DNA of 63,842 nucleotides, counting the filler, from Sphacelaria rigidula (Eukaryota): NCBI GenBank assembly GCA_964200075.2. It is 6 parts of 6 records of this genome, joined end to end, with 100 filler letters (N's around TTAATTAATTAA, not from the genome) between each part and the next. Parts side by side here need not be neighbours in the genome. Positions count along the whole stretch, not along the records: positions 31,975 to 42,530 come from CAXNAA020006280.1; 5 more parts are not named here. The stretch is one strand, 5' to 3'. The notes beneath the pieces were generated by a model. The model did not search any database. It saw only the letters and a program-made list of their open reading frames with translations, and was not told the origin of the DNA. Below, one piece after another: positions 10,560 through 63,200 of the stretch. Position numbers and translations under genes: made by a program. Numbering within the stretch: position 1 is the stretch's first letter; each line of letters starts with the position of its first letter.

Positions 10560-10659
10560 NNNNNNNNNNNNNNNNNNNNNNNNNNNNNNNNNNNNNNNNN
10601 NNNTTAATTAATTAANNNNNNNNNNNNNNNNNNNNNNNNNNNNNNNNNNNNNNNNNNNN
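10560..10659. other. Artificial contig linker
   Basis: N44-TTAATTAATTAA-N44; the 12-mer puts a stop in all six frames. Confidence 0.98.
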
Positions 10660-13351: not shown

Positions 13352-15571
13352 CTACCACTGAAGACGGGACCAGGAGCAAAACGAAATATCCTCACCTACA
13401 CTTTTCTTGTCGGCAAACGGTTGGGCTTCCTCGCACCAGGAGCCGCCATCGATGGCGCCACAGTTCTTAACAAAACTGCCTTCACGGCGGCGGCGCCCAT
13501 CAAGCATCGTGGCGAATTTCTGCTTTCGCCTTAGGCGGCGCTTCGCGCTAAGCTCTCTTTTGTCGGCAGTCGCTTGAGCTCGCTTTACTCCCTGTTGAAG
13601 CCGTGCTTTTCTCAGTCGTTGAAGGGCCCGCTTTCGAGCCTGCTCGCACAGATGCTGGTTTTCTCTCACGACTAACATCGCTGACACGTCGGGCGCCCGT
13701 GGTTTCGATGACACACGCCGAATATTCCCGACCATTACATCGATAGCAGTTTGTCCGTCGACATCACAGGGTCGTGCTGCTGAGGTGGTGCCGGGGGAGG
13801 TGACACGGCCTATTGAAGAGTTGTAGGTGGTACCTTTGACCGTGCCATCACCCGGGGAAGAGACTTGATTTTCCTCTTTCAATAATAACCCCGTAGGGAC
13901 TGACAGACAGCGGTGGTGCGTTCGATTGGCGTCATCTTCCTCGTCTCCAGCGGTAGGCATCGATGCGAACGCACTCCTTCGCACCCCCCCTTTGACGCTG
14001 GGAGAAGATAAGGGGGAACTGTGGGGACACTTTTGTTTACGTTGGTCATCTCTGCCTTTGCTAGTTATAGAGACATGTATTCCGTCCATCACGGCTGCAT
14101 CGACTTCACAACACGACCAAGCGTCCGTGCAGGTCAGGGACACGCCAGGAAACGACGGTTTTCTCGCAAACATACACCCCTCAGCCCACTGCTTCCTTTC
14201 TCGTCCTTTGCTGACATCAGCTGGTGTTTCCTTGATACCAGGTTTCTGCCACGGAACTGTTCTCACTCCTATCTTCTCGAACCTACCATCACCGCTCTCC
14301 ACCACATTCGTAATGTCTTGGTGACCTACATCATTACCCAGTGGGCATGGCGCAGGCGACGTCGGTGGAGGTGAAGGTGGAGGTGGAGGCGATTGCCTCA
14401 TCAACACCTGGGAGTGTACACTCTTAGTGCCGATCGTCGTCATTTGACATTTGTCATCCAACGTCGGCTTGCATTCAGCCAATTCCATCGCCTTATCTAG
14501 CTCGTCGCCTGTGTTGGGTGTGCCTCCATTGAGGAATGACTGATTTGTCCAGCATACACCGGTCATGCGAGACCCCTTTCCCACAATTCCTCCACTCACA
14601 TCTAGATCATTCGAACGGACGCTATTCGTCGGACTCGATAACGCGCGGTCTATCCGCCCCACGCGGAGCACGTCACGACCATTTGGTTCCTTTCTTCTCC
14701 CGGGCAAATCCAGCACACCATCTGCGCGGGATTCTTTGACCGTAACATGCTGTATGCCCCCGGTAACCTTGTCGCAGTGGTCGTAACCTTCCTCAGGACG
14801 AGACATAGTCAACATCATTCCGCCCGAATCTCCGGCTTCCTCTCTGGCAATCCTTGGCGCATTCGTCGGTGGCGAAATTGATGAATGTCGCGGAGATAGG
14901 GTCTGCTTTACTTTTCGGGGCCATCTTGCTAGGCGACCGACGGCCACCGCCCAGTCTACTTCTCTTCCCATGGTGTCGGAGCTGAATGATAATCTACATG
15001 CATCTATCACGGCATCCTTAGCAGCAGCAATCATCAAGAGGCAATCATCCACGACGGCGGCGGCGCCTATCGCCTCAGCCAACGCAAGAAGGGGCAAAGC
15101 GTCAGCAGCATCTATTTCGAGCGCCACTGCAGGATGCAGCTTGCGTCGATTCACCTTACAGACGGAACAGCACGAGTGCATTGACCTTGTCTTCGAGGCG
15201 AAGTGGATGTCGTGGCATCCCCTCAGGCAAGTGCAGCGCACAGGTGGGTGAACACTTCCCACCCCGCCGCTGTCTAACGCCCTGTTGTAGTCACAAAGCC
15301 CGTAGCACTTGTCTCGTGTTATCGTGTGACACATATGATCTGCAGCAGGTCTGGCCGTCTCCAAAACTTGTCTGGCCCGAGAGACTATCGCGGCATCCTC
15401 TACCAAGGAAGAGCATACCTGTCTTGCTAATAACCGGCGTGTATCAATTGAAGCGCGAATAACAGATGGGCAATCGATTTTGTGGGAAAGATGAGAGGCC
15501 ATGACATCAGGTTCAAGGAGCAGCTGAAGAAGCTCATCACCACTGGCGTTTGACCGGCCAGTGCACCTCAC
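13352..15571 (-). CDS. N-terminal part of the same unknown protein: BTB/BACK-like helices, disordered region, basic coiled coil
   Basis: 739-aa ORF. IDAADALPLLALAEAIGAAAVVDDCLLMIA resembles the BTB-BACK junction; EQARKRALQRLRKARLQQ looks like a coiled coil. The true start is uncertain. Confidence 0.6.
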   Translation of the reverse strand: MRCTGRSNASGDELLQLLLEPDVMASHLSHKIDCPSVIRASIDTRRLLARQVCSSLVEDAAIVSRARQVLETARPAADHMCHTITRDKCYGLCDYNRALDSGGVGSVHPPVRCTCLRGCHDIHFASKTRSMHSCCSVCKVNRRKLHPAVALEIDAADALPLLALAEAIGAAAVVDDCLLMIAAAKDAVIDACRLSFSSDTMGREVDWAVAVGRLARWPRKVKQTLSPRHSSISPPTNAPRIAREEAGDSGGMMLTMSRPEEGYDHCDKVTGGIQHVTVKESRADGVLDLPGRRKEPNGRDVLRVGRIDRALSSPTNSVRSNDLDVSGGIVGKGSRMTGVCWTNQSFLNGGTPNTGDELDKAMELAECKPTLDDKCQMTTIGTKSVHSQVLMRQSPPPPPSPPPTSPAPCPLGNDVGHQDITNVVESGDGRFEKIGVRTVPWQKPGIKETPADVSKGRERKQWAEGCMFARKPSFPGVSLTCTDAWSCCEVDAAVMDGIHVSITSKGRDDQRKQKCPHSSPLSSPSVKGGVRRSAFASMPTAGDEEDDANRTHHRCLSVPTGLLLKEENQVSSPGDGTVKGTTYNSSIGRVTSPGTTSAARPCDVDGQTAIDVMVGNIRRVSSKPRAPDVSAMLVVRENQHLCEQARKRALQRLRKARLQQGVKRAQATADKRELSAKRRLRRKQKFATMLDGRRRREGSFVKNCGAIDGGSWCEEAQPFADKKSVGEDISFCSWSRLQW

Positions 15572-21217: not shown

Positions 21218-21317
21218 NNNNNNNNNNNNNNNNNNNNNNNNNNNNNNNNNNNNNNNNNNNNTTAATTAATTAANNNNNNNNNNNNNNNNNNNNNNNNNNN
21301 NNNNNNNNNNNNNNNNN
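21218..21317. other. Artificial contig linker
   Basis: N44-TTAATTAATTAA-N44. Confidence 0.98.
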
Positions 21318-22392: not shown

Positions 22393-23438
22393 CCGCTAGT
22401 ACCTTGCCCGCAGCTGCATGTGAAGGGTAGTGTTTGTGCGTAAAGACACCGCACAGCATTGTCAGCAGCGATGAACCCTTCACGGGGCGAAGGAACCCTG
22501 TGATGCACAGTATTCATGACCACTGTGGAGAAACCCTGTGAAGCGTCCTGTGCTACGCTGGAAAACACTGTACAGTGGAATTCCCGCCAGAAGCACTGCG
22601 CAGGGTACGTGAACCCTGTAGACCCCCTCCACCGGGTGCTATCTGTCCACGTGTGAAACGAGTAATGACTCGTCCGACCCGTGGAGCTTTTCATCGAGGA
22701 TGCTAACCCAGAGAATTCGAAAGTCCGTATCCACAGCAAATCTCCGACATATTATTGCATTCGTGCAGATCGCCATTTGGGCATTTGCGGAGAGATTTAC
22801 TTTTATGACGTGTAACCTAGTAAACGGCTGTTACAGGGGTAGTTTTTGCAGGAGCCTCGAAACTCCCATATCTGTACAGCCGCATCTGGGACCCCAAGGT
22901 ATCAGGGATCTTCCCAACGAACTGCTGGCTATTCCTGGGGATCACTCAGACTTTGGCTTCGTGTCCGGGCCAACTTGTTCGCGCTCGTCGAGCTTTGCCA
23001 ATGGATCCACTGCTCTACTGCATATAGGATTAACGGTCTGATGAAGAGGAGGGTGCACATCTGCTCAAAAGTCCGGGCTCATGTTTTCTCATTGATTAAC
23101 CCCATGCCTAGTGATTCCTATAACGTGCGGAGATAGCGGCCATATAAAAGTCTATACGGAACCCCGAATGATATATACAGCGGATGATGACGACTTTTGG
23201 TGCAGACACTCCCTGGAGCACGTGGAAACGATCGATATCCCCACCTTCGCGTAAGCCATTATCTATGTCGAGATATGGCGCATATGAGGTTCCATACTGA
23301 AATTAAAGTATTGCGAGCAGAGGCACCAAATGCACTTCGCGTCTCAGTTTTTGAGAGTTGTGCTTTGTAATTTTGTACAAGCTGGGCCGGCCTAGACGCG
23401 GATTAAGGCTTTCAAAGCAATATCTCATAGACACAGAC

Positions 23439-23883
23439 TGTTGGAATATTCAATGTCAGTCATTGGTAACGACTATTATCTATCGCAATTTATAGTAAAC
23501 AAGTAAGAAATCATTTGAGTGTTCCAGAAATAGTCTGCGGTATATTCTGCGGTACATTATGGTTCCAGAACAAGTTGTCGGGGCATTAATCGGAGTAATC
23601 GGTTGTAATATCCCGCGAGAGTTCTAGACGTGTGCAAGTTCTGGAAGTTCATTAGCTGATCGGTAGGCTCGCACACTGCTCGCCCACCTGATCACTCCTC
23701 TAGTACTTCTCTTCTCATACTCTTCTCTTCCATGAGGTGGAGTCTTTGGCCATATAAGCGCCAAGTTCAACATCTCCATTCTCAAGTCAAGTGACGTAAC
23801 CGTCACTCTCTGCACCTCTGCATAAACTGCAGAAGACATTTGCCACATCGGCATACCATGAAGAGTGAAGCCATATTCCTCCA
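23439..23883 (+). repeat. Copia 5' LTR (445 bp)
   Basis: TGTTGGAATA...TATTCCTCCA, a direct repeat of 29904-30353. Confidence 0.92.
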
Positions 23884-23894
23884 GGTTATGAGCC
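23884..23894 (+). promoter_or_regulatory. Primer-binding site complementary to the tRNA-Met anticodon arm (half-tRNA priming)
   Basis: GGTTATGAGCC lies directly after the LTR-terminal CA, as in Ty5 and Drosophila copia-type PBSs. Confidence 0.8.
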
Positions 23895-24569
23895 TCGAGC
23901 TTCATCAATAAGCAGAGCAAGGAGTCACAGCGTCGTCAGCGATCAACACGTTCTCAAGAGGATCGGCACCGCTCTTCCAAGTAGGAGCCGGGCATCGCAC
24001 CAACGGGAACTTCAAGTCCTTCCCCATCAATCAAATTCAAGTTCTGTGGAGGTCCATCAAGATCAGGCGCGTCGGCATCATCCACGTCGCCAAGGCATCA
24101 CTGCAGCAGTTCAACGAAGTCAGCTCAAGACTACCTCTCCACGCTCATCTCGCTAGTGAGCATCTTCGGGTATCAACAAGATCGACAATCGACCGCATCG
24201 CATCGGCAAGTTCCGAGCTATTCCTCCGCATTTTCGTTGCGTGAGAGTGTTTTCGAGAAAAGAGAGATACGTCGTCATCAGCAACGACACTCAGCTACGT
24301 CGTCTTCAGCTACGACATCATCAGTTCGGCAGGATCTCCTAGCAACACTAGCCAAGAGGCAAGGACTTCGGATCCATCAAGCCTATCAACTGGCATTCGC
24401 AGTCAACACCCGTAGGTAACTCACACCTGGGTGAATCATCATCTTCTGTTGAGGGACTGTCAGTTTCTCTTGGAATTTTTCAACGTCGTCGTACGACTGC
24501 TGTACGAGTACACGTCATCTACACGGACGGCAACAGCAACAACAACAACAGCAACAGGATCACCGCGGC

Positions 24570-27500
24570 ATGGGGGAGCCATTAACAAATGCTGCTGCGG
24601 CGGACGCAGTGGACAAGCTCGTCAAGGCTGTTGGCGGAAAGTTCAACGGGATGGACTTCGATGTCTGGTCCCGCACAGCACAGTCCGTGATCAGCATGCG
24701 ACATTCGGGCATTGCAGACATCCTAGGTGGCAGACCATGTCCACCGACCATTTACAAGAATACCAAGGGCAAAGCTGGCAAGCAGAAGAAACAAGCAACC
24801 TCAAGCATCGAAGATGAAGAAGAGGATTAAGACAAGGATGCAGCAGAAGACTCAGCACTGCATCCCGAGCAACAGCAGCAGCTCGCACCAGATGAGCCGA
24901 CTTCAACAAGCGGCGAGACTCCTACTTCTGAATGTGGGAGATGGATGACAACGTCCAGAACGTCGAGGACATCCGGGAGTGGCACATGGTCAACAAGATC
25001 CTGTTCGACTTCCTGCTCTTGAGTACGGCAGGACCGGCAGCAAGCTTCTCCTAAAGTACAAGCCTAGACCAGGCATTTTGCCGAACGGCATCGCCGCTTG
25101 GAATGGTCTGGTGGGAAAATACAAGAAGCCTTCACGCCAGCGGCGTCGAATTATGACCAAAAGGCTGTCTAACATGAGAATGCAGCAAGGTCAAGACCCG
25201 GACGTCTTCTGCAACGAGCTATTTGCGTTGCGAGATGAACTGGCAGAGATGGGTCGAGTGATTACGGGCGACGAGGTACTGGACATCATCCTGGATGGGC
25301 TGACGGACGAGTACGCCCAGATTCAACTGCTTGCGGAATCGCAAGACACTTTCAATCTTGAAGACGCCATGTTCACCATGAGGAACATGTTCGCAAACCG
25401 TGTCGCAGAAAACGGGCTTTCGCGTGCAGCGAAGGGTCGCACCTCGGCGATGACCGCCACAACGGCAAAATACTGCAACTACTGCAAAAAGCCTGGTCAT
25501 GACATCAATAACTATGTTAAGCGAAACAACAAGAAGAGCACAAGAAACAACGGAGGGGGAAGAAGTAACTGGTGGTGCTCCTTGCACAAAACCAGTCTTC
25601 ACGACAATTCGACCTGCAAGGCGCAATAACACTAGGGCAACGATCCTGACGATCAGCGGCAGCAAGGACAATCCCGCTTCAGCGACAGCGGACAAGGACG
25701 CTTCAGCGACAGCGGACAAGGACGCTCAACAGCAACAGTAGACAAGGAGGCGTGAACAACAACAGCGGACAAGGTGGTAACAACAACAACAACACCAACG
25801 CGGCAGCACACACAGTAGCAGCGACACCGGGGTCTACAACTGTGGTGGGACACTACAACACAGCCGGATAATCTACTCCAACTTCCGCGACTGCCGCCAC
25901 TCAACAGGCTTCAGATCCATCGCCTTCAGACCCTTCATCTTCTGCCGGAATGGGTTACTCCTTCGTCGTCACCAGCAGCCTGAACACCGCCGCTGCTCCT
26001 TCGCGCTTCACCATGACTGTCGGCACCGGCGCCAGCAACCATTTCGTCGACCCTGACTTGCTTCCAAATCTTCAGCACCGGATGATCGAGCACCAGAAGT
26101 ACGACCCGCCGATTGTCATCAACGTCGCCGGCAAGGGAAAAATCCACGGCACCGGCAGAGGAAAAATGAAGGTCGTCACACGGGACCAAACCGGGGCCGA
26201 GCACAAGGTCCTGCTGCCCTTCACCATAGCACCAGGGCTGGGTCGTCCCCTGTTCTCGGGAGGAACAGCAGTGCAAAGAGGGGTGTCATTGGTTTTTGAT
26301 GATTTCTCTTTCATTAGAATGGGAAACTTCAAGCTGCTTCTTCGACAAGACAGCTCCTGCACTACCATGTACTACTTGGATCCGGCTATTGAACCGGACA
26401 GCATCTGCACTCAACACGGTTTTATAACCATCTCCGGCGCCAATCTGCCACCTGAAAGAGCGAATATAGCATTCAGTACCTCTTTGATCCAGGACACGGA
26501 AAAGGAAACAGCATGTGCCACCTCAACGGCTACATCGATGGCCAACACGTGGCATCAGCGACTCGGACATTCCAATGCCCAAGTGCTACTACAAGTCGGG
26601 CGGATAAAAGAGAGCGGGGTCGCGTTTTCGACTCCTTTTCAGCGTGCGGGACGTGCAAGACAAACAAAAGCACACGGTGGAATCATCCCAAGACCAGGAG
26701 CACAGGCGCCACGCAACGACTTCAACTCGTCAGCACGGACCTTCCAGGGCCCGTCACTCCAACTGCGATCGGTGGCTACCAGTACATGGCCAAGTTTACC
26801 GATCATTACTCCAGGCTCAAGGCCGTCTACTTCCTCGAAAGGAAAAGTGACGCCCTTTCTTCTCTGGTACAGTTCGTTCAAGACCTCGCCATTCCACTCG
26901 GTCTACGGGTACAACGTCTACATTCGGACAACGGCGGGGAATATGTCAGCACTGCGTTCCGCGACTACTGCAAAACTACGGGGATCATGTAGCAGTTCAG
27001 CTCCCCGCACACGCCGCAACGAAGCGGCATATCGGAGCGCGACGGGCGGACCATCATGGACATGACCCGCTGCCTCCTGAACGAAGCAGGTCTGCCTAAG
27101 GACCTATTGGGGGAGGTTGCGGCAACTGCGGTATTCCTAATAAACCGCCTACCGCACAAGGCTCTACAAGGGGACACGCCCTACCATCGGGTGTTCGGAA
27201 AGCAGGCAAAACTTTCCTTTCTTCGGATCATCGGCTCCAGGGCCTTCGTCCACGTCGAAGGTCATGCCACCAAGCTGCAGCCAAAAGCGTGGGAAGGTGT
27301 TTTATTTGGCTACAACGACGACAGCCCAACCTTTTGTATCTACGATCGGGCTACGGGACGCATTACAACCTCCCGGAATGTCACCTTTATTGAGCCGGTT
27401 CCGGAACCCCTGAGCTGTACCAATCTTCCGGATAGTAAAGAAGAAGAATCATCGGTCGACACGGCAGATCTGGAGCAAATCCACGACGGAATTACATTGC

Positions 27501-29320
27501 TGGATTTCAACAAGGACAACGACGAAGGTCACGATATCAACAACCGACAGGAACAGCGCTTCAAGGAACCACTGGGTTTTACACGACGACTGCGTTCATC
27601 CGGATCCGTTGATCCTTTCCAAACAGAGATGAATAATCCATCACAGGCTCGGGTGCTACGACAACTCAACTTCGCGCAGGAGGATTCATCTCAAGCGATG
27701 CCGGACTCAGTGATCTCGTACATCGGAGCAGTGGGCATCGATCAAGTTCTTCCTCCTGCAGCAATCTAAGTGCCCAACACCTACAAGCAGGCCATGGACT
27801 CACCCCACGCAGCGGAATGGGAAAATACCATGGAGAAAGAAATGAACAGCCTGGCCGACCACGAGGTGGCGGATCTCGTCCCGTTCGACTCCGTACCCGC
27901 CAGTTGCTCCATCATCGGCACGCGCTGGGTTTATCGGATCAAAACGGATGGGCGATTCAAGGCAAGAGTCGTCGTTCAGGGCTGGGCGCAACAGCACGGC
28001 ATAGACTATTTCACCATACTTGCACCGGTGTGCAGGATTGGAAGCCAAGTACTTTTATTGGCGATAGTGGCTGCCTAGAACTGGCCGGTCATCGCCATGG
28101 ACGTGCAGACAGCGTCCCTAAACGGTACTCTCTCCGAAGTGGTGTACACTTTTCAGGCGCCAGGATTCGAAAAGTTCGACAGCACCACTAGCAAGCAGCT
28201 GGTTTGGCGTCTGCCCAAGAGCTTGTACGGGCTGCGTCAATCTGTGAGCGTTTGGAACTCAACAGCCGACAAGGATCTGCGCACGAAAGGGTTCACACCT
28301 ACAGCATCTGACCCCTGTGTCTACACCAAGGGCAGTGGAGGCACCTACGGCATGCTGACACTCTTCATCGACGACATTCTTCTCACAGGCCCTGCTACCG
28401 ACGTGCTGCATCAAGTGCATCAGTAACTTCAGCAATCATTCAAGATGACTGATCTTGGTCATGCGACTCAGATTCTCGTCATCGACATTTATCAAGACCT
28501 GGAGAACGGCACAATAAGCCTCAGCCAGGAGAAATACACCATATCTGTGCTCAAGCGTTATGGCATGGATACGTGCAATCCCTCGCACACTCCAAGGACA
28601 GAAGCTGAGCTCAACAACGCAATTGGTGAATCTGCACTTCTTTCCGCAAGTGAGAAAAAGGACTACCAGAGCCTGGTGGGAAGCCTCATCTTCCTGGCGA
28701 ATTGCGCAACATTTGACATCGCGCATGCCGTCATGCAGGTAGCACGGCACATGTCAAGTCCGACCACTGCGAGCGCAGCTAGCGCTAAAAGGATTCTTCG
28801 GTACCTCAAGCGCAACCCAGGTCTCGTCATTACCTACAGGCGCGCCAGCGACTTCAGCATTACCTGCTACAGCGACGCCTCCTACGCATCTGGACCATCA
28901 AGCAAATCCATCACCGGATCAATGGTTTTTCTGAGCGGAGGGCCCATTCACTTCGGCAGTCAAGTTCAGCGCATAACCGCGCAACCGACATCGGAGGCGG
29001 AGTTCATCGCAATGAACAGCACCGCCAAGCACAGGCTCTACTTCTCTTCTATGCTGGGGGAGCTAGGATGGTCACGGCAACGCACCTTCGCCCTGTATGC
29101 GGACAACCGGAGCTCCATGACCCTAGCTTCGAAGGCGAACTTCAGCCAGAGGTCGCGGCACATCGCCGTCCGCTTCGCCGCACTCCGCGAATAGATCCGT
29201 CAAGGCATCATCAAGCTAAACTTTATTCCAGCCAGCCACATGTTGGCCGACCTTTGCACCAAGTGCTGCATCCGCGAGGTACAAGACAGCCTCATGCGGC
29301 AAATCCTTCAGTTCAAGTGA
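24570..29320 (+). pseudogene. Copia gag-pol with several stops and frameshifts
   Basis: Gag from ATG 24570 with knuckle CNYCKKPGH. PR VGTGASNH (catalytic D lost). IN WHQRLGH, CGTC, STDLPGP, SDNGGEY. RT GTRWVYRIK, KSLYGLRQS, FIDD. RH YSDASYA, SEAEF, ADNRS, ADLCTK. Ends at TGA 29318-29320. Confidence 0.93.
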
Positions 29321-29894: not shown

Positions 29895-29903
29895 GAGGGG
29901 GAG
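29895..29903 (+). promoter_or_regulatory. Polypurine tract
   Basis: GAGGGGGAG lies immediately before the TG of the second LTR. Confidence 0.85.
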
Positions 29904-30353
29904 TGTTGGAATATTCAATGTCAGTCATCGGTAACGACTACTATCTATCGTAGGCTATCGTAAACAAGTAAGAAATCATTTGAGTGTTCCAGAAATAGTC
30001 TGCGGTATATTCTGCGGTACGTTATGTTTCCAGAACAAGTTGTCGGGGGATTAATCGGGAGTTATCGGTTGTAATATCCCGCGAATGTTCTAGACGTGTG
30101 GAAGTTCTGTAAGTTCATCAGCTGATCGGTAGGCTCGCACACTTGGTGCTCGCCCACCTGATCACTCCTCTACTACTTCTCTTCTCATACTCTTCTCTTC
30201 CATGAGTTAGAGTCTTCGGCCACGTAAGCGCCAAGTTCAACATCTCTATTCTCAAGTCAAGTGACTTAACCGTCACTCTCTGCACCTCTGCATAAACTGC
30301 AGGAGACAGTTGTCACATCGGCACACCCTCAAGAGTGAAGCCATATTCCTTCA
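29904..30353 (+). repeat. Copia shared (middle) LTR, 450 bp
   Basis: Preceded by the PPT and followed by a PBS (CGTTATGAGCC) and a second leader and gag. Confidence 0.92.
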
Positions 30354-31874
30354 CGTTATGAGCCTCGAGCTTCATCAATAAGCAGAGCAAGGAGTCACAG
30401 CGTCGTCAGCGATCAACACGTTCTCAAGAGGATCGGAACCGCTCGTCCAAGCAGAAGACGGATATCACACCAACGGGAACTCCAAGTCCTTTCCCATCAA
30501 TCAAATTCAAGTTCTGTGGAGGTCCATCAAAATCAGGCGCGTCGGCATCATCCACGTCGCCAAGACATCACTACAGCAGTTCAACGGAGTCAGCTCAAGA
30601 CTATCTCTCCACGCTCATCTCACTAGTGAGCATCTTCGGTCATCAACGAGATCGACAATCGACCGCATCGCATCGGCAAGTTCCGAGCTATTCCTCCGCA
30701 TTTTTGTTGCGTGAGAGTTTTTTCGAGAAATGAGAGATACGTCGTCATCAGCAACGACACTCAGCTACGTCGTCTTCAGCTACGGCATCATCAGTTCGGC
30801 AGGTTCTTCTAGCCAAGAGGCAAGGACTTCGGATCCATCAAGCCTATCAACTGGCATTCGCAGCCAACACCCGTAGGTAACTCACACCTGGGTGCATCAT
30901 CATCTTATGTTGAGAGACTGTCACTTTCTCTTGGAATGTTTCAACGTCATCGTACGACAGCTGTACGAGTACACGTCATTTACACGGACGGCAACAGCAA
31001 CAGCAACAACAACAGTAACAGGATCATCGCAGCATGGGGGAGCCATTGACAAATGCTGCTTCGGCGGACGCAGTGGACAAGCTCGTCAAGGCTGTTGGCG
31101 GAAAGTTCAACGGGACGGACTTCGATGTCTGGTCCCGCACAGCACAGTCCGTGATCAGCATGCGACATTCAGGCATTGCAGTCATCCTGGACGGCAGACC
31201 ATGTCTGCCGACCATTTACAAGAAGACCAAGGGCAAAGCTGGCAAGCGCAAGAAACAAGCATCCTCAAGCATCAAAGATGAAGAAGAGGATGAAGACAAG
31301 GATGCAGCAGAAGACTCAGCACTGCATCCCGAGCAACAGCAGCAGCTTGCACCAGATGAGCCGACTTCAACAAGCGGTGAGACTCCTACTTAAGTGTTGT
31401 GGGAGATGGATGACAGCATCCAGGACGTCGAGGACATCCGGGAGTGGCACACGGCCAACACGATCCTGTTCCACTTCCTGTTCTTGAGTACGGCAGGACC
31501 GGCAGCAAGCTTTCTCCTAAAGTACAAACCTAGACCAGGCATTTTGTCAAACGGCATCGCCGCTTGGAATGATCTGGTGGGAAAAATACAAGAACCCTTC
31601 ACGCCAGCGGCGTCGAGTTATGGCAAAAAGGCTGTCTAACATGAGAATGCAGCAAGGTCGAGACCCGGACGTCTTCTCCAACGAGCTATTTTCGTTGCGA
31701 GATGAGCTGGCGGAGATGGGTCGAGTGATCACGGACGACGAGATACTGGACATCATCCTGGATGGGCTGACGGACGAGTACGCCCAGATTCAACTGCTTG
31801 CGGAATCGCAAGACACTTTCAATCTTGAAGACGCCATGTTCACCATGAGGAACATGTTCGCAAACCGTGTCGCA
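30354..31874 (+). mobile_element. Second tandem copia internal region (leader plus gag from ATG 31034), cut by contig end
   Basis: Closely matches 23884-25407 but carries different inactivating lesions (TAA at 31391-31393). Confidence 0.92.
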
Positions 31875-31974
31875 NNNNNNNNNNNNNNNNNNNNNNNNNN
31901 NNNNNNNNNNNNNNNNNNTTAATTAATTAANNNNNNNNNNNNNNNNNNNNNNNNNNNNNNNNNNNNNNNNNNNN
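31875..31974. other. Artificial contig linker
   Basis: N44-TTAATTAATTAA-N44. Confidence 0.98.
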
Positions 31975-36495: not shown

Positions 36496-37296
36496 TGGCT
36501 ATCATCATGCCCCCTGGCTAGTGCCGTATAGCGTGTGCATTCGCATGCACAATCGCCCTATCAGTGGCCGCCGCCGCCATACCTACCTAGCGTAGAGCAT
36601 CCTTTGGGTACCCACACAGAATAAGGTGGTATCTCACAACAGCGAATGGCAGTGCACTGGAAACGTCATGGATCGACAGGTGCTACCCACCTCAACATTA
36701 CCATCCGCCTGGCGTAGGCTTTCGGTATCAATCGTTTATTTGTTAAGGAACATCACGCACCTGAACGGATGGTTCATCCACCCTGTGACCCCAACTTGAG
36801 GTGCATAAAACAGAATGATCGCATGCCCGTCGTGTGTTACGCAATTCGGATGGATAGAGACACCATGCTAGCGACCTCGACCCTGTAGATTTCTCTGCAT
36901 CTTTGTACTACGGCACCCCTTGGTTCGCTTAAGCCGTGCCGCCACACTGCGGAAATGCGTATAGAGACTATGATTCTCGTTGAAAGCCCCCCCCCCCCCC
37001 TCCCCCTGTAATGACCCTGCTGCAGCAGCTCTCTCTCTGTCGCCTGCTAACTCCACGGCTGATATGTCAGTTCACCCTGGCCCACTTGCCCGTATGCGAC
37101 CGAGATAGAATGATGAGGTTCACCTATCTTTCACATGGGCACGGCCTAAGGTTACCTTCGCTGGTTGGTTGATGCAGGGTGCTGCTGGACTGGTCAAGTG
37201 GTCTTCGTGAAGGGGTTTGTAACAGTGCGGATCGCAGCAGCAGAAGCACCAGCGGGACCGCGGCTTTGTACCTTCTCTCGTGCAGTCGTGAAGGAG

Positions 37297-39816
37297 ATGC
37301 CTAGCTCGTGCACCCACACTAGTTGCACCACGAGAGCATCATATGGCATGGCGGGTAGCAGGAAGGCAGAGTTCTGCGCTGCCCACGCCAAAGCGGGCAT
37401 GGTCGATGTGAGGAAGAAGCGGTGCGGCGACGAGGGCTGCTCGAAATACCCATCGTTCGGTGCAGCCGGTAGCAGGAAAGCAGAGTTCTGCGCCGCACAC
37501 GCCCGAGTGAGCATGGTCGACATGAAAAAGAAGCCGTGCAGCGAGGAGGGCTGCTCCACATACCCATCTTTCGGTGCTGCCGGTAGCAGCAAGGCAGAGT
37601 TCTGCGCCGCACACGCCCGAGTGGGCATGGTCAACGTGGTGAGCAAGCGGTGCAGCGAGGAGGGCTGCTCTGCAAGAGCATCGTTCGGTGCAGCCGATTA
37701 CAGGAAGGCGGAGTTCTGCGCCGCACACGCCCCAGCGAGCATGGTCGACGTGGCGAGCAAGCGGTGCAGCGAGGAGGGCTGCTTCACAAGACCATCGTTC
37801 GGTGCATCCAGCAGCGGGAAGGCGGAGTTCTGCGCCGCACACGCCCGAGCGGGCATGGTCAACGTGGCGAGCAAGCGGTGCGGCAAGCAGGGCTGCTCTA
37901 CAAGAGCATCGTTCGGCGCAGCAGACAGCAGAAAGGCGGAGTTCTGCGCCGCACACTGCCGAGCGGGCATGGTCGATGTGACGAGCAAGCGGTGCGGCAA
38001 GGCGGGCTGCTCCACAAGACCATCGTTCGGTGTAGCCAGTAGCAGGAAGGCGGAGTTCTGCGCCCCTCACGCCCGAGCGGGCATGGTCAATGTGAAAAAC
38101 AAGCAGTGCGGGAGGGAGGGCTGCTCCACAGTACCGTCGTTCGGTGCAGCTAGTAGCAGGAAGGCGGAGTTCTGCGCCGCACACGCCCGAGCGGGCATGG
38201 TTGATGTGACGAACAAGCGGTGCGGCAAGCAGGGCTGCTCTACAAGACCGTCGTTCGGCGCAGCTAGTAGCAGGAAGGCGGAGTTCTGCGCCGCACACGC
38301 CCGAGCAGGCATGGTCGATGTGAGGAGCAAGCGGTGCGGCGAGGAGGGCTGCTCTGCAAGAGCATCGTTCGGTGCAGCCGGTAGCACAAAGATGGAGTTC
38401 TGCGCCGCACACGCCCCAGCGGGCATGGTCGATGTGAAAAACAAGCAGTGCTGGAGGGAGGGCTGCTCCACCATACTATCGTTAGGTGCAGCCGGTAGCG
38501 GGAAGGTGGAGTTTTGTGCCGCACAAGCCCGAGCGGGCATGGTCAATGTGAGAAACGAGCGGTGCAGCGAGGAGGGCTTCTCCACAATACTATCATCCGG
38601 TGCAGCCGGTAGCAGAAAGACAGAGTTCAACGCCGCACACGCCCGAGCGGGCATGGTCGATGTGGTAAGCAAGCGGTGCGGCAACCAGGGCTGCTCTACA
38701 AGAGTATCGTTCGGCGCAGTCGGTAGCAGGGATGCGGAGGTCTGCGCTAGACACGCTCGAGCAGGTGTGCTTCACCTGAGAAACGAGCAATGCGGCAAGG
38801 ATGGCGACCCGAACCAATCATTTGTCGGTGAAAGAGCTGACAGCAAGGTTACGTTGTGCGCCGCACACGCTCAAGCGAGCACGGTCGACATGTCACGAAG
38901 ACGGTGTGGGAAAAAGGGCTGCTCCGTCATATCGTTATTCGGTGCAGCCTGTCGCAAGAAAGCGGAGTTCTGCCCCACACACGCCCGTCCAGGCGTGGTC
39001 GATGTGGTACGACGACGGTGCAATAGAGAGGGCTGCTTCGCACGGCGATCACCCGGTGCAGTCGGTTGCAGGGATGCGGGGTTATGCGCCGCACACGCCA
39101 GCTTAGGGATGGCCTTCATCAACGGCGTTAAATGCGCCTCGCTGCATCATTCTAACCTGGTTCGGGAGGACGGAAATATCTATCATCATGCTCCATGTGG
39201 CTTGGTCAGAGGGTCTGATCCCGCAGGACATATCCGAGAAAAAACCCCAGCGAGTGACGGCTTGGTTGTGGGAGAGACTGGTGTTGGTATCGATAATTGG
39301 GGTGAAACATGTGGCTATCCACCGAATGGCGGCCCCAACACGAATGATGGTGGTCGTGACTCTGAGTCTCGTCCCAGCTCGCGTGCCATCCGTGTTACTC
39401 GATGGGGTGCAAATTCCACGACCACTTCGCCTTCCCCCTCGAGACAGCCCCCCGGCGCGATGGCAGCAGATGGGGTCACTCTAGGTGGGTCAAAGATGTG
39501 CATGAAACTCAAAATGGAAATGACTGTTGCGCCTACGCAAGATTTCGAGGGGATTCGAACTAGCAAACGAGTTACTGCGCGATTCAGCAGTTGCGACAGC
39601 ATGAGCGGCTCCGGCAGAACTACCAGAAACAGTAGCATCACCCATAGAAGGAACACGAAGCGGCTTCGCCGGACGACCCAGGTGGTGTCGGTACCTGACG
39701 TGGCAGCCGGGGATGATCTGTCTGAAAACGATAGAACCAACGTGAAGTTGGAACTGAACGTGTCCGCCCGGTCTCGTCACGCGTCCGCGGCCCCACTCCG
39801 CCAGCGAAAGAGGTAG
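37297..39816 (+). CDS. EsV-1-7 cysteine-rich repeat protein (16 repeats of 38 aa)
   Basis: Repeat consensus CxxxGCSxxxSFGxxxSRKAEFCAAHARAGMVDVxxKR (C-x4-C-x16-C-x2-H). First ATG at 37297 follows a pyrimidine tract and CAG acceptor at ~37285. C-terminus is PLRQRKR. Confidence 0.9.
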   Translation: MPSSCTHTSCTTRASYGMAGSRKAEFCAAHAKAGMVDVRKKRCGDEGCSKYPSFGAAGSRKAEFCAAHARVSMVDMKKKPCSEEGCSTYPSFGAAGSSKAEFCAAHARVGMVNVVSKRCSEEGCSARASFGAADYRKAEFCAAHAPASMVDVASKRCSEEGCFTRPSFGASSSGKAEFCAAHARAGMVNVASKRCGKQGCSTRASFGAADSRKAEFCAAHCRAGMVDVTSKRCGKAGCSTRPSFGVASSRKAEFCAPHARAGMVNVKNKQCGREGCSTVPSFGAASSRKAEFCAAHARAGMVDVTNKRCGKQGCSTRPSFGAASSRKAEFCAAHARAGMVDVRSKRCGEEGCSARASFGAAGSTKMEFCAAHAPAGMVDVKNKQCWREGCSTILSLGAAGSGKVEFCAAQARAGMVNVRNERCSEEGFSTILSSGAAGSRKTEFNAAHARAGMVDVVSKRCGNQGCSTRVSFGAVGSRDAEVCARHARAGVLHLRNEQCGKDGDPNQSFVGERADSKVTLCAAHAQASTVDMSRRRCGKKGCSVISLFGAACRKKAEFCPTHARPGVVDVVRRRCNREGCFARRSPGAVGCRDAGLCAAHASLGMAFINGVKCASLHHSNLVREDGNIYHHAPCGLVRGSDPAGHIREKTPASDGLVVGETGVGIDNWGETCGYPPNGGPNTNDGGRDSESRPSSRAIRVTRWGANSTTTSPSPSRQPPGAMAADGVTLGGSKMCMKLKMEMTVAPTQDFEGIRTSKRVTARFSSCDSMSGSGRTTRNSSITHRRNTKRLRRTTQVVSVPDVAAGDDLSENDRTNVKLELNVSARSRHASAAPLRQRKR
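37309..39132 (+). repeat. Coding tandem array, 16 x 114 bp
   Basis: Exact 114-nt period with no indels; the next Cys codon falls at 39133. Confidence 0.95.
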
Positions 39817-42530: not shown

Positions 42531-42630
42531 NNNNNNNNNNNNNNNNNNNNNNNNNNNNNNNNNNNNNNNNNNNNTTAATTAATTAANNNNNNNNNNNNNN
42601 NNNNNNNNNNNNNNNNNNNNNNNNNNNNNN
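42531..42630. other. Artificial contig linker
   Basis: N44-TTAATTAATTAA-N44. Confidence 0.98.
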
Positions 42631-42751: not shown

Positions 42752-43906
42752 CTACGACAAGTCATCCACCCCGAGCAGTCTGCCAAGGGAAGCGAAAGAT
42801 CCTTCCTCTCCCTCCTCCTGCCCCTCCCCTCCCCCACTGCTACTACCGCAACGGCCACCTACCCTCCCCGTACAGGGAATATGGGTTGTGCACAGATCGC
42901 CTCCACCCGCCGACGATGGCGCACCCTTCAGCACGAAACTACTGCCGCCGCTGCCGACGCCGCCGCTGCCGTCGCCGCCGCCACCCCCGTTTATCCGCAT
43001 CTGCTGCTCCGCGAGTCGTCCGTGTTGTGAACGGCGGTCCGGCGTCGCGTTGTTACGATGCAGGTGCTGATGCTGAATCTGGTGGCGATGCAGATCATGA
43101 GGTGAATTGTTACCGCCATCACGATCATGCCGACTGGTCTGCTGCTCTGAGGAGGAGGGCATAACGTCGTTCCATCCGTCGATAGAGGTCGCTCCGATCG
43201 AAAGTATCGACTCCTGGCTATTTTCGCGCGGCGTGCTTCCAGCGACCATTAATCCCATTTGGCTCCAGCTGGGGAAAATTCCCCGCGGCGGCGCCGACGG
43301 CGAAGTACCCGGCTCCTGCCGCTCCTGTTGCCCGCGGTGCGGTATCGGCGGTGAGGCTGCCCCAACCACCACCTCGTTAAGCGCGTCGATGTCGCCTTCG
43401 CAAAGGAGATCACCTTCGTATGATACCCTGCGCGAAGCCCGCGCGGATTGCAAGGGCGATAATTGCCACCGCTCGCCCTGAACCCGATCCACGAATTGGC
43501 GGGAACTCGGACCCAAGACAGCCTCTTCGCCTGGCCTAGGCAAAGAATCCACGTTGCATTCTCCGATGGGGCTCACCTCTACGTGACTGCAGCTCCGAGT
43601 AGAGGCCCAAAATTCAGAGCCGCCGCCGCCACCGCCTCGCACCTCCTCTTGTTCCGGCGCGACGGACACCACGTCGGTTCCGTCAGACGGCACGGTCAAC
43701 CCAGCGCGCGTTTCGGCATCCCAGGTAGAGGAATCCAACATGCGTGGGGCTACCCACGCTTGGTACGGCGACTTTGGGGTCGGGGTACGGTTCAGGACGC
43801 GTTCATGCTGGTTCTCCCGGCGCTGCTGCTTTTCCTGAGGCCGCGAAATTCCTTGCACTCCGTTGACATTATTGTTATCGTCAGCGTTGGAGTTCAGACG
43901 ATGGGA

Positions 43907-43937
<31 letters not shown>

Positions 43938-44492
43938 TGCTGTCGGCGATATTGAAGCGGTGGCCGCTGCTTCTGTTGCTGCTGCTGACGCTTTTGCGAG
44001 AGGATCCGCACCTGTACCGCCTTGGAGGATGTGCCCGCCTGCCGTGTTGCCAGTGCGTCCTCCTGTTTCACGGCGCTGTCGAGGACGAGATGAACGTCAG
44101 GGTTGCCATGGCTGCTGCTGCTGCTGCTACTGCCGCTGCTGCTGCTGCTATCCTCATTATCGTTGGAATTATCCACGTCGGTGGAATTTTCGCTGCCATG
44201 ACCGCGCCGACTGTCGTTGACGGTGCCCGCCGTCCTTGCACCGGCGTTGGCGGCGTCGCTCCCCTTCGTGAGAGCTGCTGAACAGGCACCAGCCGCCCGG
44301 ATAGCCAGGTGGCAGTGCTGGGCACACGCGCTCATGTCACAGATCATGGCACCATCAAGAAACTCGTCGTACGTCGGCACGTACTTGTCCAGCGTCGACA
44401 TCAACTCTGCGCGGCATGTCTCGTACTCCTCCCGACACTCGTGACACCCAAACGCTGTCAGCGCTGAATGTATGCCGTGCCCCCCGCCATGT
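42752..44492 (-). CDS. Last exon (D) of a multi-exon gene: conserved helical/Cys segment, then a poly-S/poly-Q low-complexity tail
   Basis: Pyrimidine tract and AG acceptor (TCAAG|A) in phase 2. Length 1741 nt to TAG at 42752-42754. Confidence 0.75.
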
Positions 44493-45239
44493 CTTGAGTT
44501 AAGCAAGCAGGAGAGGGGAAGCGAAGGGGGGGGGGGGGGAAGTAGCAGGGGTAAACGATCAAGAGTGATGGAGCGGACAGGGTAGGCACCGGCACTTGAA
44601 GGGCGTAAAAGCAAGCCTCTCTTGGTGAATATCATTTTCTGGGATCATGACTACTGACATGCTGCTTTCGACGCTCCCGCCACCAAGCAGGAAAGGAAAA
44701 GATATAATAGCAACATCGCAAACACCATTCCCGACAAACATGCTGACAGCAGCGGAGCACTTCGAACATCAACCAACGACGACCCACCGACAACACCATC
44801 AGTCGCAGCCACGGCCCCCCCTCCCCCACGGGGTTGGCGTCGGTTGGCAACGATGCTGTAAAACACGCCACTCACTACGTAGGCTACCAGGTTACCGGGT
44901 TTTTTGCGCGCTTGCGTTTTTTTTGCGGTAACCATGATGGTGGTCCAGGTAGATCCTGTTGTACGGGGAAGGAGAACCTCGATTCCGCGCAAAGGGGATG
45001 ATCATTTTGCGTAGTGTTTATATGGTGAGACACCCATGAGGTAGTGTGGAACCCTTGAGTGTCTCTGGAAGTGGCGATACCAGAAAATGAAGGTCATGGG
45101 AGGCTGTCATCCATATGCAATATAATCAGTACGCTTCGGGCCGAAGAATCTTAACAGGATGCAGCTCACCCCTCATACGACTCGCCGAACACATCACGGC
45201 TTGGTGATTGATTGTGAGCCTGGTCCGGCGAAAACCGGC

Positions 45240-52274: not shown

Positions 52275-53093
52275 GGGCCTGTCTTACCAATTTTTTTTCG
52301 ATCGAAAAAGTGCGATCGATATTTTTTAGCTGATCCCATACGTCCACCGCATTCATGTTCGAAGGCTTCAACTCGAAATTATAATTAGCGGCGCGCGGCG
52401 AAGAATGCAACGAGGGAAGAAACAATCGTTTTCGATCGAAAACATGCGGTCGAAAGGCGCGAAGAGGCACTTGACTCCTCTCTTACAGACCACCACGTCA
52501 TATAACACCCGTTCAGAGGACCATGCAAACTCCATCCAACTCATTCTCAGCTACCACCGCAACCTTTCTGCATAGAGCACGAGTTGAGCACAGGGATAGA
52601 TACACGAAAGTAGTTGGGTGTGCTTTCTTTATTTTTTGTTGGCGAAAACTTGCGCATCGTCTCTTATGGTAGGCATCAGGGACGGAACTGCGTACCGTAC
52701 GATGGGCAACCGAGTTGCGTGCACGCTCATGGACAGCGCAGGCAGTACAAAGCTGCACGTTGATGAAGTTATTTTCAAGTCGCATTCTAAGCAGAGAGAA
52801 CTGATAGCCTTGGGCTGTCTGCACTGCACGTTGTCCGCTTCCCCTTTATCTTCTCCCGCACGAAGCACGCACACACGCACTCAAGACACCCTACTGGCAA
52901 GCAGTGCAAACAGTATAGACTACCTGTACTGAACACGAGTGACCATGTACCGTTTCACAAATTTCTCTGTCTTTTTTCGATCGAAAGCTTGAAAATTCAT
53001 CCGGACCCAACTGCATCAGAACGAATTTTTTCGCTCGGATCGATTCCACCGCCTCATTTTTTCGATCGCAAAGAAATGTGCCAAGACAGGCCC
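52275..53093. mobile_element. PIF/Harbinger-type (Tourist-like) MITE, 819 bp
   Basis: TIRs GGGCCTGTCTT / AAGACAGGCCC. TTA TSD at 52272-52274 and 53094-53096. Confidence 0.88.
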
Positions 53094-53186
53094 TTAGATC
53101 CGGATGGATTTTCAAGCTTTCGCTCGAAAAAAGACAGAGAAATTCGTGAAACGGTACATGGTGTGTACTGTTTGCACTGCTTGCCA

Positions 53187-53286
53187 NNNNNNNNNNNNNN
53201 NNNNNNNNNNNNNNNNNNNNNNNNNNNNNNTTAATTAATTAANNNNNNNNNNNNNNNNNNNNNNNNNNNNNNNNNNNNNNNNNNNN
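53187..53286. other. Artificial contig linker
   Basis: N44-TTAATTAATTAA-N44. Confidence 0.98.
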
Positions 53287-60248: not shown

Positions 60249-63200
60249 TCATGGATCGGTACGATCAGTCATAAAGGAGCCAGGGTTTCTGGCGTTGGGG
60301 TTTGAGTGATTATGATTCGGCCCCGTGCGCTGGTATCTATCGGCGGAATTCCGGTGACGGTGAGATAAACTCTCTCTTCGCCGGGAGCTAGAGTTGTCGT
60401 ACTTGTTGGGGCGACTGTCGCGATTTGAGCGAGTGTTGTCGCGGTCGTTGAAAGGGCGGCGAGAATGACGGTTGGGTGTGCGATATTCACACATGCGTTT
60501 CTGCCATCGGCGCCATGCTGGCTCATTGTCCTGCAGCTCAGAGTGCATGAGGTCAAAAGAGTTGATACAAGGGCGAGTACAATCGCGCATACTGTGCCCT
60601 TGGGTGTTACAACTGATGCAACTATTTGCGTGGCAGTTTAAGGCCTCGTGTCTGGCAGCAGACGAGAGGAGGGGGTTCCACAGATCTGGTTCATCTGTAG
60701 TAAACGCAGAGGTAGATACAGTGTGTAAACATCATCTCAAGTCTCGACGGAGTACGGCCATCCGTCAAAACTGGCGCTGAACGGATCTCTCTTGTTTGTA
60801 ACGCTCATGACGGAGCCGGGCACGGAGGCAGGCATCCACGAGGAACGAAGCGAAGTGTGAGGCCGGCTACGGGACCCTGAAGGGGTCGAAGAAGGCGCAG
60901 AAGCAGACTGAGGACGAACTGAAGCATATTTGTTGCCGCCAATGGCTGGCGTCAAATTATTTTCTTGATGAACAAACGCACTCCTCATCGCTTCCACAGA
61001 GGGATAAGGCACTTCGCGATGGGCTAAAGCACCTGGAAACAGTGATGGATGGCATTAGAGTCGGGTACTGCTCGGACACACTATTCCTTACATATGATTG
61101 ACACACTGCGTCCGATGGACCAGTCTGGCGGCCTACTTCCATAGTACTGGAAACTAGAAGCTTGAATTCTCGGAGGTAGTCCGCGAAAGGGACATTTGTT
61201 GCGACACCGAAAGAACTATGTCGTTGTATAGCACTCCCTTGAGTGCTGCGATCGAAGTAGCCGGTCAAGCGGTGCTCGAGATCACGGAGTAAATCCGGGC
61301 CTGACTTCCCCGAGGCACGGTCCGCATCCATAGCGGCCATGAAACCATCAAGGACTTGTGTCAAAGCTGCGGCAGTGTCGGGCGAGCGACGGTTGATGGC
61401 ACGGTGCAGAGCTTTGTGAAGAGGAGTCTGCCAACCATCAACCCAGTTAGAGTTTTCGAAACGTTGAGCGCCCGTAGAGTCTACTAGCTGAAGGATGTTT
61501 CGGAGGGTGTGACGTATAGATGTGATGAGAGCAGAAGTGAATTGTCCCGAGACTTCGTTGTCTGCTGCAGGCATGGATTTTACATGCCAAAGTTTTTTCA
61601 CGTCCATTTGGATGTTTTCTCTCTGGATGGCGGTGGTGCGGGCGGATTCCGCTCGAGCGGCGGTTACTGCTGCACTAGCTGCGGCCTGCGCTCGGTCGGC
61701 GGCAGCGGCAGCAAGAGTGCGAGCCGAAGTGGAAGATAACGGTTTATCCGAGTTGTCGTCCGAAAGGCCTAAAATCTGACGCGGAACATCTGCTAGACGC
61801 GGTGTAGCGCGACGTAGGTCGGTAGAAGCCGACGCGGGCGAGTTCATGGCGGATCGAATCATGGGCTTGGTGGAAGAAGAGCTCGACGAGCCGTTACTCT
61901 GGTGTGTCTTGTTCAAACCGGTGGTGAGACGGGTTACACGGTGTGATTGGGTTCTCCCAGAGGAGGAGCTTGAACCTCCATGGTGGTGGCGAGAATCACC
62001 GCGGCGAAGATGCTCATGGTCGGCAACATCATGTCTGTGGCGTCGGCGGCGAGGAGTCACCGAGATCCAGTCGTCATCAACTTGGGCTGTGACGGATTCG
62101 GAGGCGGCGCGCAATGCGTCGAAGAGCTCGACAATGGACAGTTCGTAAGAGGTGGTGGTTTGTTCGATGTGGCGGACTAATTGGCCAATGGTAATCGAAA
62201 AGAGATCATCGGAAGGGCAGACCCTGTCGTGTTCCAGGTAGGAAGCGACCGCGTTTTGGAGTGGTCGAACGAGCGCTAGCCAAGCGTCGCGAGAGCTTTG
62301 CAAACGATTCGAGGGGGTGTATTTTCCCGCAAGAGTCTGCACAGAAGGCGTGAACCAAGGGATGTCATCGCAGTGGAGGGAGAAGCGGCGCGGTTCAGCA
62401 CTGGTGTTGGGGCGGGCGGTCGAAGTAGGGGGGGGTGGGGATGGCGTGCGGTGGGAGCGAGGAGCGGCTACGGCGTGAGAGGCACGTGACCGCTCCTTCT
62501 CTAGTTCGCGGAGAGGAGCGTGATACCCTTCGGTGGAAAGTATAGACGCCGCTGCATCTGTGATGCGTTGCCGATTGATGAAATCATTCATGGCCGGTGC
62601 GTGGTCAGCATAGTCACGGATGAGTTGCTCTTGGGCAGTGCGATCATCGTCCATGAAAATACGCGGGAGCAGCCCCAAGGGGTAGTGCTCCGGACCCAAC
62701 TGTGGGCGGTCCTGCTGCGACGAAGGTGCAGGGTTGCACGGCGCGACAGTAGATGCAGGGAGGGTTGAAGCGGATGCGAGTGCACAAGGAGCGCGGAAGC
62801 CAGTATGGGTACCACTATCGGCGTCAGTGTCGGCGACGGTGGCAGTCGCGGTGGTGGCGGCAGCGGGAGCTGGTGCCGGGACAGCAGAAACGGCGGCGTT
62901 GGGGGCTGCGGTGGGGGGCGGAGATATGGGGTTGTCCACAAGTGCTTGTACTGTGAGCTGTAAATCGTCAACTTGTCGCCGTAAGGAACGGATGACTGCA
63001 GCGTCAGAGCGGGAAAACCTATCGCGTGTGAGGCGAGCACGGTGACTGCGATGGCGTGAATCGTAAGGCGGTTGGTCGCTGGAATGCGCGATCGACGATT
63101 CCTCTGGTGAAGGAAGATCTGAAAAGATATCCCCCATGGTGTCAGCGTGCGTGCACGGTAACGTTATTACGTGGGGAGCGCCGACGTGAAGCCCTTGAGG

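Follow-up and report, generated by a model that had tools for sequence, protein, structure and literature searches.

A sixteen-unit EsV-1-7 repeat array in Sphacelaria rigidula with a constrained Cys3His scaffold and a few fast-changing loop positions

We analysed a stretch of 63,842 nucleotides (nt) of DNA from Sphacelaria rigidula (assembly GCA_964200075.2), which consists of six joined parts of six records and is called the window below. One part, from record CAXNAA020006280.1, carries an open reading frame (ORF) of 839 codons that contains a long tandem array of EsV-1-7 cysteine-rich repeats (Table 1). The initial annotation of this DNA had described 16 units of 38 amino acids (aa) without indels, and this description is exact, as 16 units of 114 nt follow one another with zero indels from 37309 to 39132 on the plus strand. 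Tandem Repeats Finder likewise reports a period of 114 with 12.4 copies, 83% matches, 0% indels and a score of 1727 over 37354-38762. The family named there is also the right one: the 839-aa protein matches PF19114 (EsV-1-7 cysteine-rich motif; curated cut-off 25 bits) with 600.9 bits and an E of 1.7e-185 in 15 stretches, and all 16 units match it when scanned singly (best E 5.7e-19). The gene is almost certainly a member of the EsV-1-7 family, and it is an ordinary, not-yet-described member with an unusually long array of 16 units. A hidden Markov model (HMM) of the unit, used in a six-frame scan of the window, found the 16 array units and no others. No same-strand ORF of at least 150 aa overlaps 37297-39816. 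An antisense open frame of 357 aa (37339-38412, minus strand) runs through the array, as is usual for in-frame repeats of high GC content, and there is no sign that it is a gene. A higher-order repeat was considered and rejected, since periods of 228 and 342 bring no gain in score over 114 and the identity matrix has no offset pattern.

The Cys and His ligand positions are intact in 60 of 64 cases, and the full set of four is present in 13 of the 16 units. Unit 11 lacks H26, unit 12 lacks both C6 and C23, and unit 14 lacks C6, so that the near-constant zinc-ligand scaffold described earlier stands for most of the array and is damaged in units 11, 12 and 14. From the invariant Cys and His residues and a suggestion in the literature, we infer that each unit is a small zinc module. 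The array is basic, as had been stated, with an isoelectric point (pI) of 9.47 and 96 Lys and Arg against 49 Asp and Glu residues. Pairwise nucleotide identity among the units is 46-90%, with a mean of about 79% for units 1-13. The units arose by tandem duplication and later recombined with one another; the pairwise homoplasy index (PHI) detects recombination among them with p values of 0.0005-0.05. Unit 10 is a mosaic of this kind, whose head has the ARA and P28 of unit 4 and whose tail has the KNKQ of unit 7. Since shared states accompany such mosaic ancestry, they suggest recombination and not convergent re-use. The C-terminal tail (residues 613-839) matches no Pfam family.

Table 1. Coordinates of the EsV-1-7 gene, its parts and neighbouring elements along the window
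Feature	Position	Strand	Remarks
ORF, 839 codons	37297..39816	+	first in-frame ATG to TGA; 4-residue N-terminal lead, 16-unit array, 227-residue tail
EsV-1-7 array, 16 units of 38 aa	37309..39132	+	C1-x4-C6-x16-C23-x2-H26, no indels
Units 11 and 12, ligands lost	38449..38676	+	H26Q (unit 11); C6F and C23N (unit 12)
Unit 14, most divergent	38791..38904	+	46-67% nt identity to other units; C6 replaced by D
C-terminal tail, 227 aa	39133..39816	+	pI 10.0, basic
Possible 3' splice site tgatgcag (weak hint)	37170..37177	+	about 120 nt 5' of the ATG
Direct repeats, about 1.98 kb, 93% identical	23436-25407 and 29901-31874		flank ORFs at 25950-29194 (+)
RVT_1 ORF, 354 aa	57500-58564	-	E 4e-11

The relatives of the protein were taken from a set of 120 listed homologues, found in a search limited to proteins of 461-1469 aa. 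The closest of those listed are unnamed products of Sphacelaria rigidula itself, with 45-59% local identity, followed by proteins of Ectocarpus, Scytosiphon and Pylaiella, green-algal proteins and many metagenomic ones; a scan of metagenomes gave 4 loci and a scan of viral contigs 1 locus, at 38-48% identity. Matching against the unit HMM yielded 570 units from 114 proteins, 378 of them with four ligands in register. The other 113 matching proteins have at most 11 units each, a comparison that is biased towards the window's array, from which the HMM was built. The 38-aa spacing is the commonest one in the family (250 of 457 intervals), and the family-conserved positions are C1, G5, C6, K/T8, P10, F/Y12, G/N13, G16, F/Y22, C23, H26, A/K27, G30, M31, V32, D/N33 and V34. 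Position 10 is P in 261 of 365 family units and position 16 is G in 306 of 365; the variation at these two family-conserved residues is peculiar to the window's array.

Within the array, per-site entropy is highest at positions 35, 10, 3, 36, 4, 16, 9, 2, 18 and 8, and at least 10 positions exceed 1.5 bits. The initial annotation had singled out eight hypervariable positions (2-4, 8-10 and 35-36), and the residue strings it quoted at 8-10 and 35-36 are correct; positions 16 (1.88 bits) and 18 (1.67 bits) are comparable to several of those eight. Its proposal of a small, re-used alphabet did not survive counting, as positions 8-10 take 11 distinct forms among the 16 units and positions 35-36 and 2-4 take 12 each, and the combination of variable residues is unique to every unit. 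Other arrays of the family are most variable, each within itself, at positions 36, 9, 35 and 28 (29 arrays without a nuclease) or at 9, 11, 36 and 24 (8 nuclease-fused arrays). As positions 9, 35 and 36 head the variability in these 37 other arrays, they are family-wide hot spots; about 20 positions vary in the other arrays, most non-scaffold positions among them. Five pairs of close homologues supply 13 unit pairs; position 9 differs in 1 of these and position 35 in 0, against 59 differences in 494 comparisons over all positions together. This is a small hint that positions 9 and 35 may be specific to each unit and yet maintained.

The substitution pattern sets the scaffold apart from these positions. 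The ratio of nonsynonymous to synonymous rates (dN/dS) is 0.59-0.67 for the whole unit, about 0.4-0.5 for scaffold codons, 0.48-0.53 for family-conserved non-ligand positions and 0.16-0.27 for ligand codons, and it reaches 1.2-1.8 at the eight positions of the initial annotation, a set picked after its variation had been seen. Synonymous divergence (pS) is 0.29 for units 1-13. At S11, G13 and A24, nonsynonymous divergence (pN) is 0 against a pS of 0.28-0.46, and the codons with synonymous but zero nonsynonymous differences include positions that vary freely across the family. Given the synonymous differences between units, recency alone does not account for the constancy of the other positions, and the Cys3His scaffold and most other positions are kept by purifying selection. 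Codon 9, by comparison, shows up to three nucleotide differences (TAC versus AGA) beside conserved neighbours. Per-site entropy and dN/dS across the units had been suggested as a check, and they show variation that is concentrated and scaffold codons that are constrained.

Codon-model likelihoods were computed with a self-written implementation of models M0, M1a and M2a on an IQ-TREE tree of the units. M1a fitted units 1-13 better than M0 (log-likelihood -828.65 versus -842.60), and the likelihood-ratio test (LRT) statistic of M2a against M1a was 20.7 for all 16 units, 15.4 for units 1-13 and 15.8 for units 2-12. The fast class comprises 13-17% of sites with a dN/dS (omega) of 3.4-5. Positions 9, 10, 16 and 35 have a posterior of at least 0.9 for this class in all three unit sets, position 28 has posteriors of 0.84, 0.90 and 0.49, and position 3 reaches 0.94 in one set. 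The list of eight hypervariable sites was thus right in part: 9, 10 and 35, and in one set also 3, belong to the class with dN/dS above 1, positions 2, 4, 8 and 36 fall outside it, and 16 and 28, which had not been named, enter it.

Because the unit tree is weak and PHI detects recombination, neutral evolution was also simulated with re-assorted segments. The fitted M1a was used with 1, 2, 4 or 8 independently re-assorted segments, in a simplified pipeline on units 1-13, for 81 null replicates (8 one-segment, 10 two-segment, 52 four-segment and 11 eight-segment). The observed LRT in this pipeline was 13.9, and 0 of the 81 replicates reached it. A tree-free estimate, for which positions were picked beforehand from other arrays, gave a dN/dS of 1.9-2.8 (standard error 0.5-0.7) at positions 9, 35 and 36 relative to whole-unit dS, and 1.1-1.7 relative to local dS. 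In all, 4-6 loop positions (9, 10, 16 and 35, sometimes also 3 and 28) have changed at or above the neutral rate. From this one array, we take the fast positions to evolve no more slowly than neutral sites and probably somewhat faster; the observed LRT exceeds that of every neutral replicate, and the signal of dN/dS above 1 is fragile under recombination.

An AlphaFold2 model of units 6-9, made from an alignment of 55 sequences, has a mean predicted local distance difference test score (pLDDT) of 88.3 and a predicted template modelling score (pTM) of 0.49. Each unit is predicted to contain a knuckle, a two-strand hairpin with strands at 12-13 and 22, a one-turn helix at 24-26 (C23-H26) and a strand at 32-33. 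On this model the variable positions would lie in the knuckle (2-4), directly after it (8-10), at the hairpin tip (16-18), behind the His (28) and in the linker (35-36), and along the sequence 35-36, 2-4 and 8-10 form a single stretch around the invariant K37-R38-C1...G5-C6. Sequence searches of the PDB found nothing meaningful with the unit profile (best E 0.47 over 11 residues) and 0 matches with the profile of the 120 proteins, and named ESM Atlas clusters without PF19114 gave no usable match. Two plant profiles gave sub-threshold matches. Unit 4 matches SBP (PF03110) over profile positions 1-36 of 75 with an E of 2.6e-4 and 21.6 bits against a curated cut-off of 27, and homologues including P0004 and P0064 match Zf_WRKY19 (PF24906) with 25.7-26.5 bits against a cut-off of 27, a hint of a distant link between EsV-1-7 and a land-plant zinc finger. 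The Cys3His spacing would equal that of the first SBP zinc site. SBP is matched at E<=1 by 1 of the 16 units, and the Foldseek and VIA lists for the array model contain no SBP structure.

An indirect pointer to function comes from the relatives, as a C-terminal motif, RPD...E.DE, is present in 66 of the 120 listed homologues; across 56 aligned carriers the residues R, P, D, E, D, E and H never vary. A model of one such relative (P0094; pLDDT 89.0) gave weak Foldseek matches that are nearly all PD-(D/E)xK nucleases (best E 2.1e-3). VIA-align placed I-Bth0305I (3r3p_A) first for residues of about 310-450, with a Z of 8.2 and a root-mean-square deviation of 3.3 over 95 aligned residues, followed by 3hrl and Vsr (1cw0_A) at a Z of 7.5. 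The simplest role for an array placed ahead of a homing-type nuclease is to direct it to DNA, so it is plausible that the EsV-1-7 repeat would target DNA.

Our explanation of the locus is that of an EsV-1-7 family member with a constrained zinc scaffold and fast loop positions at which the protein would contact nucleic acid, and we hold it, as a whole, at roughly even confidence. In this explanation the basic array of zinc modules would bind nucleic acid in the nucleus, and this would most likely be DNA because relatives carry like arrays ahead of a nuclease domain that resembles homing endonucleases; the contact surface would consist of the fast positions around the knuckle. That the array binds nucleic acid at all falls, in our judgement, a little short of an even chance. 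The earlier idea of a modular recognition array fares unequally on these data: it is plausible, with some evidence in favour, that fixed variable positions make up a recognition surface, and the TALE-like (transcription activator-like effector) code is not supported, a fixed one-unit-one-base code having a very small probability.

Several results weigh against this explanation. At the level of structure, a pTM of 0.49 leaves the arrangement of the units undefined, so that no regular superhelical packing is predicted, and the four-unit model found no Foldseek match at E<=0.001 (best E 1.7) and no fold match in a wide VIA search (best Z 2.4, to RING domains). Three of the 16 units have lost ligands, the window's protein (P0001) has no nuclease motif (RPD...E.DE..H) in its tail, and this tail has no relatives among proteins of 461-1469 aa. 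For a gene under constraint, about 0.6 is a high whole-unit dN/dS, and as P10 and G16 are family-conserved, their variation here could be relaxation. Support for the unit tree is poor (bootstraps 1-51). In the four-segment null, 5 of 52 replicates exceeded an LRT of 11 and the maximum was 12.73; chi-square p values thus overstate the significance, and the true p lies at around 0.01-0.03. Among the tree-free estimates, the class of the top eight positions picked beforehand has a dN/dS of 1.2-1.5 +/- 0.3, and the estimates for sites picked beforehand lie about 1.3-2.5 standard errors from 1. Finally, the comparison of close homologues comprises 13 unit pairs only.

An alternative is that the variable positions are simply the least-constrained surface loops of a small zinc module, in an array that would be a protein-protein or structural scaffold without a code. 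Tandem duplication, unequal crossing-over and gene conversion would then reshuffle a small stock of old variants and so only mimic a re-used alphabet. We consider this somewhat unlikely. It accounts for the recombination that PHI detects and for mosaic units such as unit 10 with its unit 4 and unit 7 states, for the variation of most non-scaffold positions in other arrays, for the near-neutral ratio of the eight positions picked beforehand and for the local ratios of 1.1-1.7 at 9, 35 and 36; recombining neutral simulations come near the observed LRT (12.73 versus 13.9), and the RING domains among the weak structural matches are protein binders. However, none of the 81 neutral replicates reached the observed value, and a fast-class omega of 3.4-5 and a codon 9 that changes at up to three nucleotides between conserved neighbours speak against mere lack of constraint, as does the rarity with which close homologues differ at position 9 (1 of 13) and position 35 (0 of 13). 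The nuclease fusions of more than half of the listed relatives also point to DNA.

A further possibility is that the gene is a recently amplified, unconstrained paralogue on its way to becoming a pseudogene, whose variable sites mark lost constraint; this we regard as improbable. The four ligand losses in three units, the variation at P10 and G16, the elevated whole-unit dN/dS and the tail without relatives in the size range searched would all fit such decay, as would the retrotransposon remains around the gene, where 4 of the 10 other long ORFs scanned in the window carry retroelement domains. However, 839 codons, 227 of them non-repeat, have stayed open, the ligand codons keep a dN/dS of 0.16-0.27 and many scaffold codons have synonymous differences only, and relaxation alone would raise omega up to 1, not to 3-5. 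A strict code in the manner of TALE or pentatricopeptide repeat proteins, in which each unit reads one base or a fixed few through 2-3 residues of a small alphabet, is very improbable, since its fixed 38-aa period without indels, the family-wide hot spots at 9, 35 and 36 and the array-nuclease fusions of relatives are outweighed by 11-12 states per block in 16 units with every combination unique, by at least 8-10 variable positions rather than two (about 20 in other arrays) and by the lack of regular superhelical packing in the model.

Sequencing runs add some observations on the gene and its copies. The stretch is present in 9 runs from 3 studies, and none of the listed runs is recorded as RNA. 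Contigs of three runs, which are RNA only by guess, start near 37176, and their upstream letters are unlike the adjoining DNA and were not found in the window; run X1 covers the DNA upstream of about 37176. These contig starts are a weak hint of the possible 3' splice site at 37170-37177. In runs X1, X4, X6 and X8, the summed contig depth over the units (37370-38740) exceeds the flanking depth by a factor of 10-100, and numerous loose contig ends lead into other EsV-1-7-like sequence. High depth and loose ends over the units together indicate many similar arrays in the source organism.

The surroundings are eukaryote-like nuclear DNA of the brown-alga type, with no obvious viral insert. The retroelement domains mentioned above are gag-pre-integrase, retroviral SH3-like, RVT_2 and RVT_1. 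The first three were matched by the ORFs between the two direct repeats of Table 1, and the arrangement looks like a Ty1/copia-type long terminal repeat (LTR) retrotransposon with broken frames; the RVT_1 ORF is probably a remnant of a non-LTR element. An integrated phaeovirus context was considered and rejected, the neighbours in the window being remains of Copia elements and long interspersed nuclear elements. A dispersed repeat of 816 bp occurs in two copies that are 82% identical (5174-5979 and 52292-53097). Four long ORFs of 419-726 aa on the minus strand (11864-13123, 13352-15502, 42752-44635 and 60957-63137) have no Pfam match and no mutual similarity, and may be genes that lack annotation or frames left open by chance in GC-rich sequence. 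Runs of N in five pairs of 44 bases (440 N in all), spaced by about 10.66 kb at 10560-10659, 21218-21317, 31875-31974, 42531-42630 and 53187-53286, are not biology.

The family to which the array belongs is among the largest brown-algal expansions and includes the developmental regulator IMM (IMMEDIATE UPRIGHT). Published counts of EsV-1-7 genes are 95-101 for Ectocarpus, 234 for Saccharina latissima and 335 for Ascophyllum nodosum. A 2026 preprint (10.64898/2026.04.27.720984) argues for a viral origin and describes stage-specific expression and Ectocarpus members without any other Pfam domain, and two reviews call the function of EsV-1-7 unknown (PMC7457493, PMC12993054). The accessible parts of the literature on EsV-1-7, PF19114 and IPR043822 assign the family no molecular function and make no mention of a structure, a ligand, a nuclease fusion or an analysis of selection at single sites. 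As things stand, this locus adds one further family member and a fragile signal of diversifying selection. Its value is that it is a young array, one of few places where selection on single repeat positions is measurable, because synonymous differences are unsaturated, and it names concrete residues (9, 10, 16, 35 and 36) as candidates. A more far-reaching proposal, which we regard as quite unlikely, would be that EsV-1-7 arrays are an unrecognised class of modular DNA-reading zinc repeats, with which giant viruses would aim homing-type nucleases and brown algae would build nuclease-less, fast-evolving DNA binders (regulators, or anti-virus and anti-transposon proteins), specificity residing at positions 9-10, at 35-36 of the preceding linker and at the tip at 16; the young 16-unit array would in that case be a snapshot of specificity diversification. 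If the repeat does read DNA, the expansion in algae and the fusions to viral nucleases would both be accounted for, and a new modular DNA-binding scaffold would be gained.

Among known systems, the array is closest to the EsV-1-7 family itself (PF19114, IPR043822; EsV-1 gene 7, Ectocarpus IMMEDIATE UPRIGHT and the brown-algal expansion), with which it shares the Cys3His spacing and the period of about 38 aa, and its best relatives come from brown algae. It differs from IMM, which is said to have five repeats against 16 here, and from other EsV-1-7 arrays, in that its units are far more alike and its tail is unique. The metagenomic and giant-virus fusions of EsV-1-7 with a Vsr/I-Bth0305I-like (EDxHD) nuclease have the same repeat in about 6-10 units with hot spots at 9 and 36, whereas the window's protein has no nuclease motif and lies in retrotransposon-rich, eukaryote-like DNA; the best of the viral and metagenomic loci are only 38-48% identical to it. 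TALE arrays also consist of fixed-length, indel-free tandem units that vary at recurrent positions. However, they are built of helical hairpins that are nearly 100% identical and vary at about two residues per unit, whereas the window has zinc modules with 79% identity at the DNA level, many variable positions and many states. C2H2 polydactyl arrays such as KRAB-ZNF proteins and PRDM9 resemble it in their small zinc modules, their conserved basic linker (K37 and R38 in the window), their conserved scaffold with few fast positions per unit and their history of unit duplication and recombination. The window's unit has the spacing C-x4-C-x16-C-x2-H and, unlike a C2H2 finger, is predicted to form a hairpin and a one-turn helix with no recognition helix. 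In its mode of action, the array would be closer to a C2H2-type polydactyl zinc-finger protein than to a TALE.

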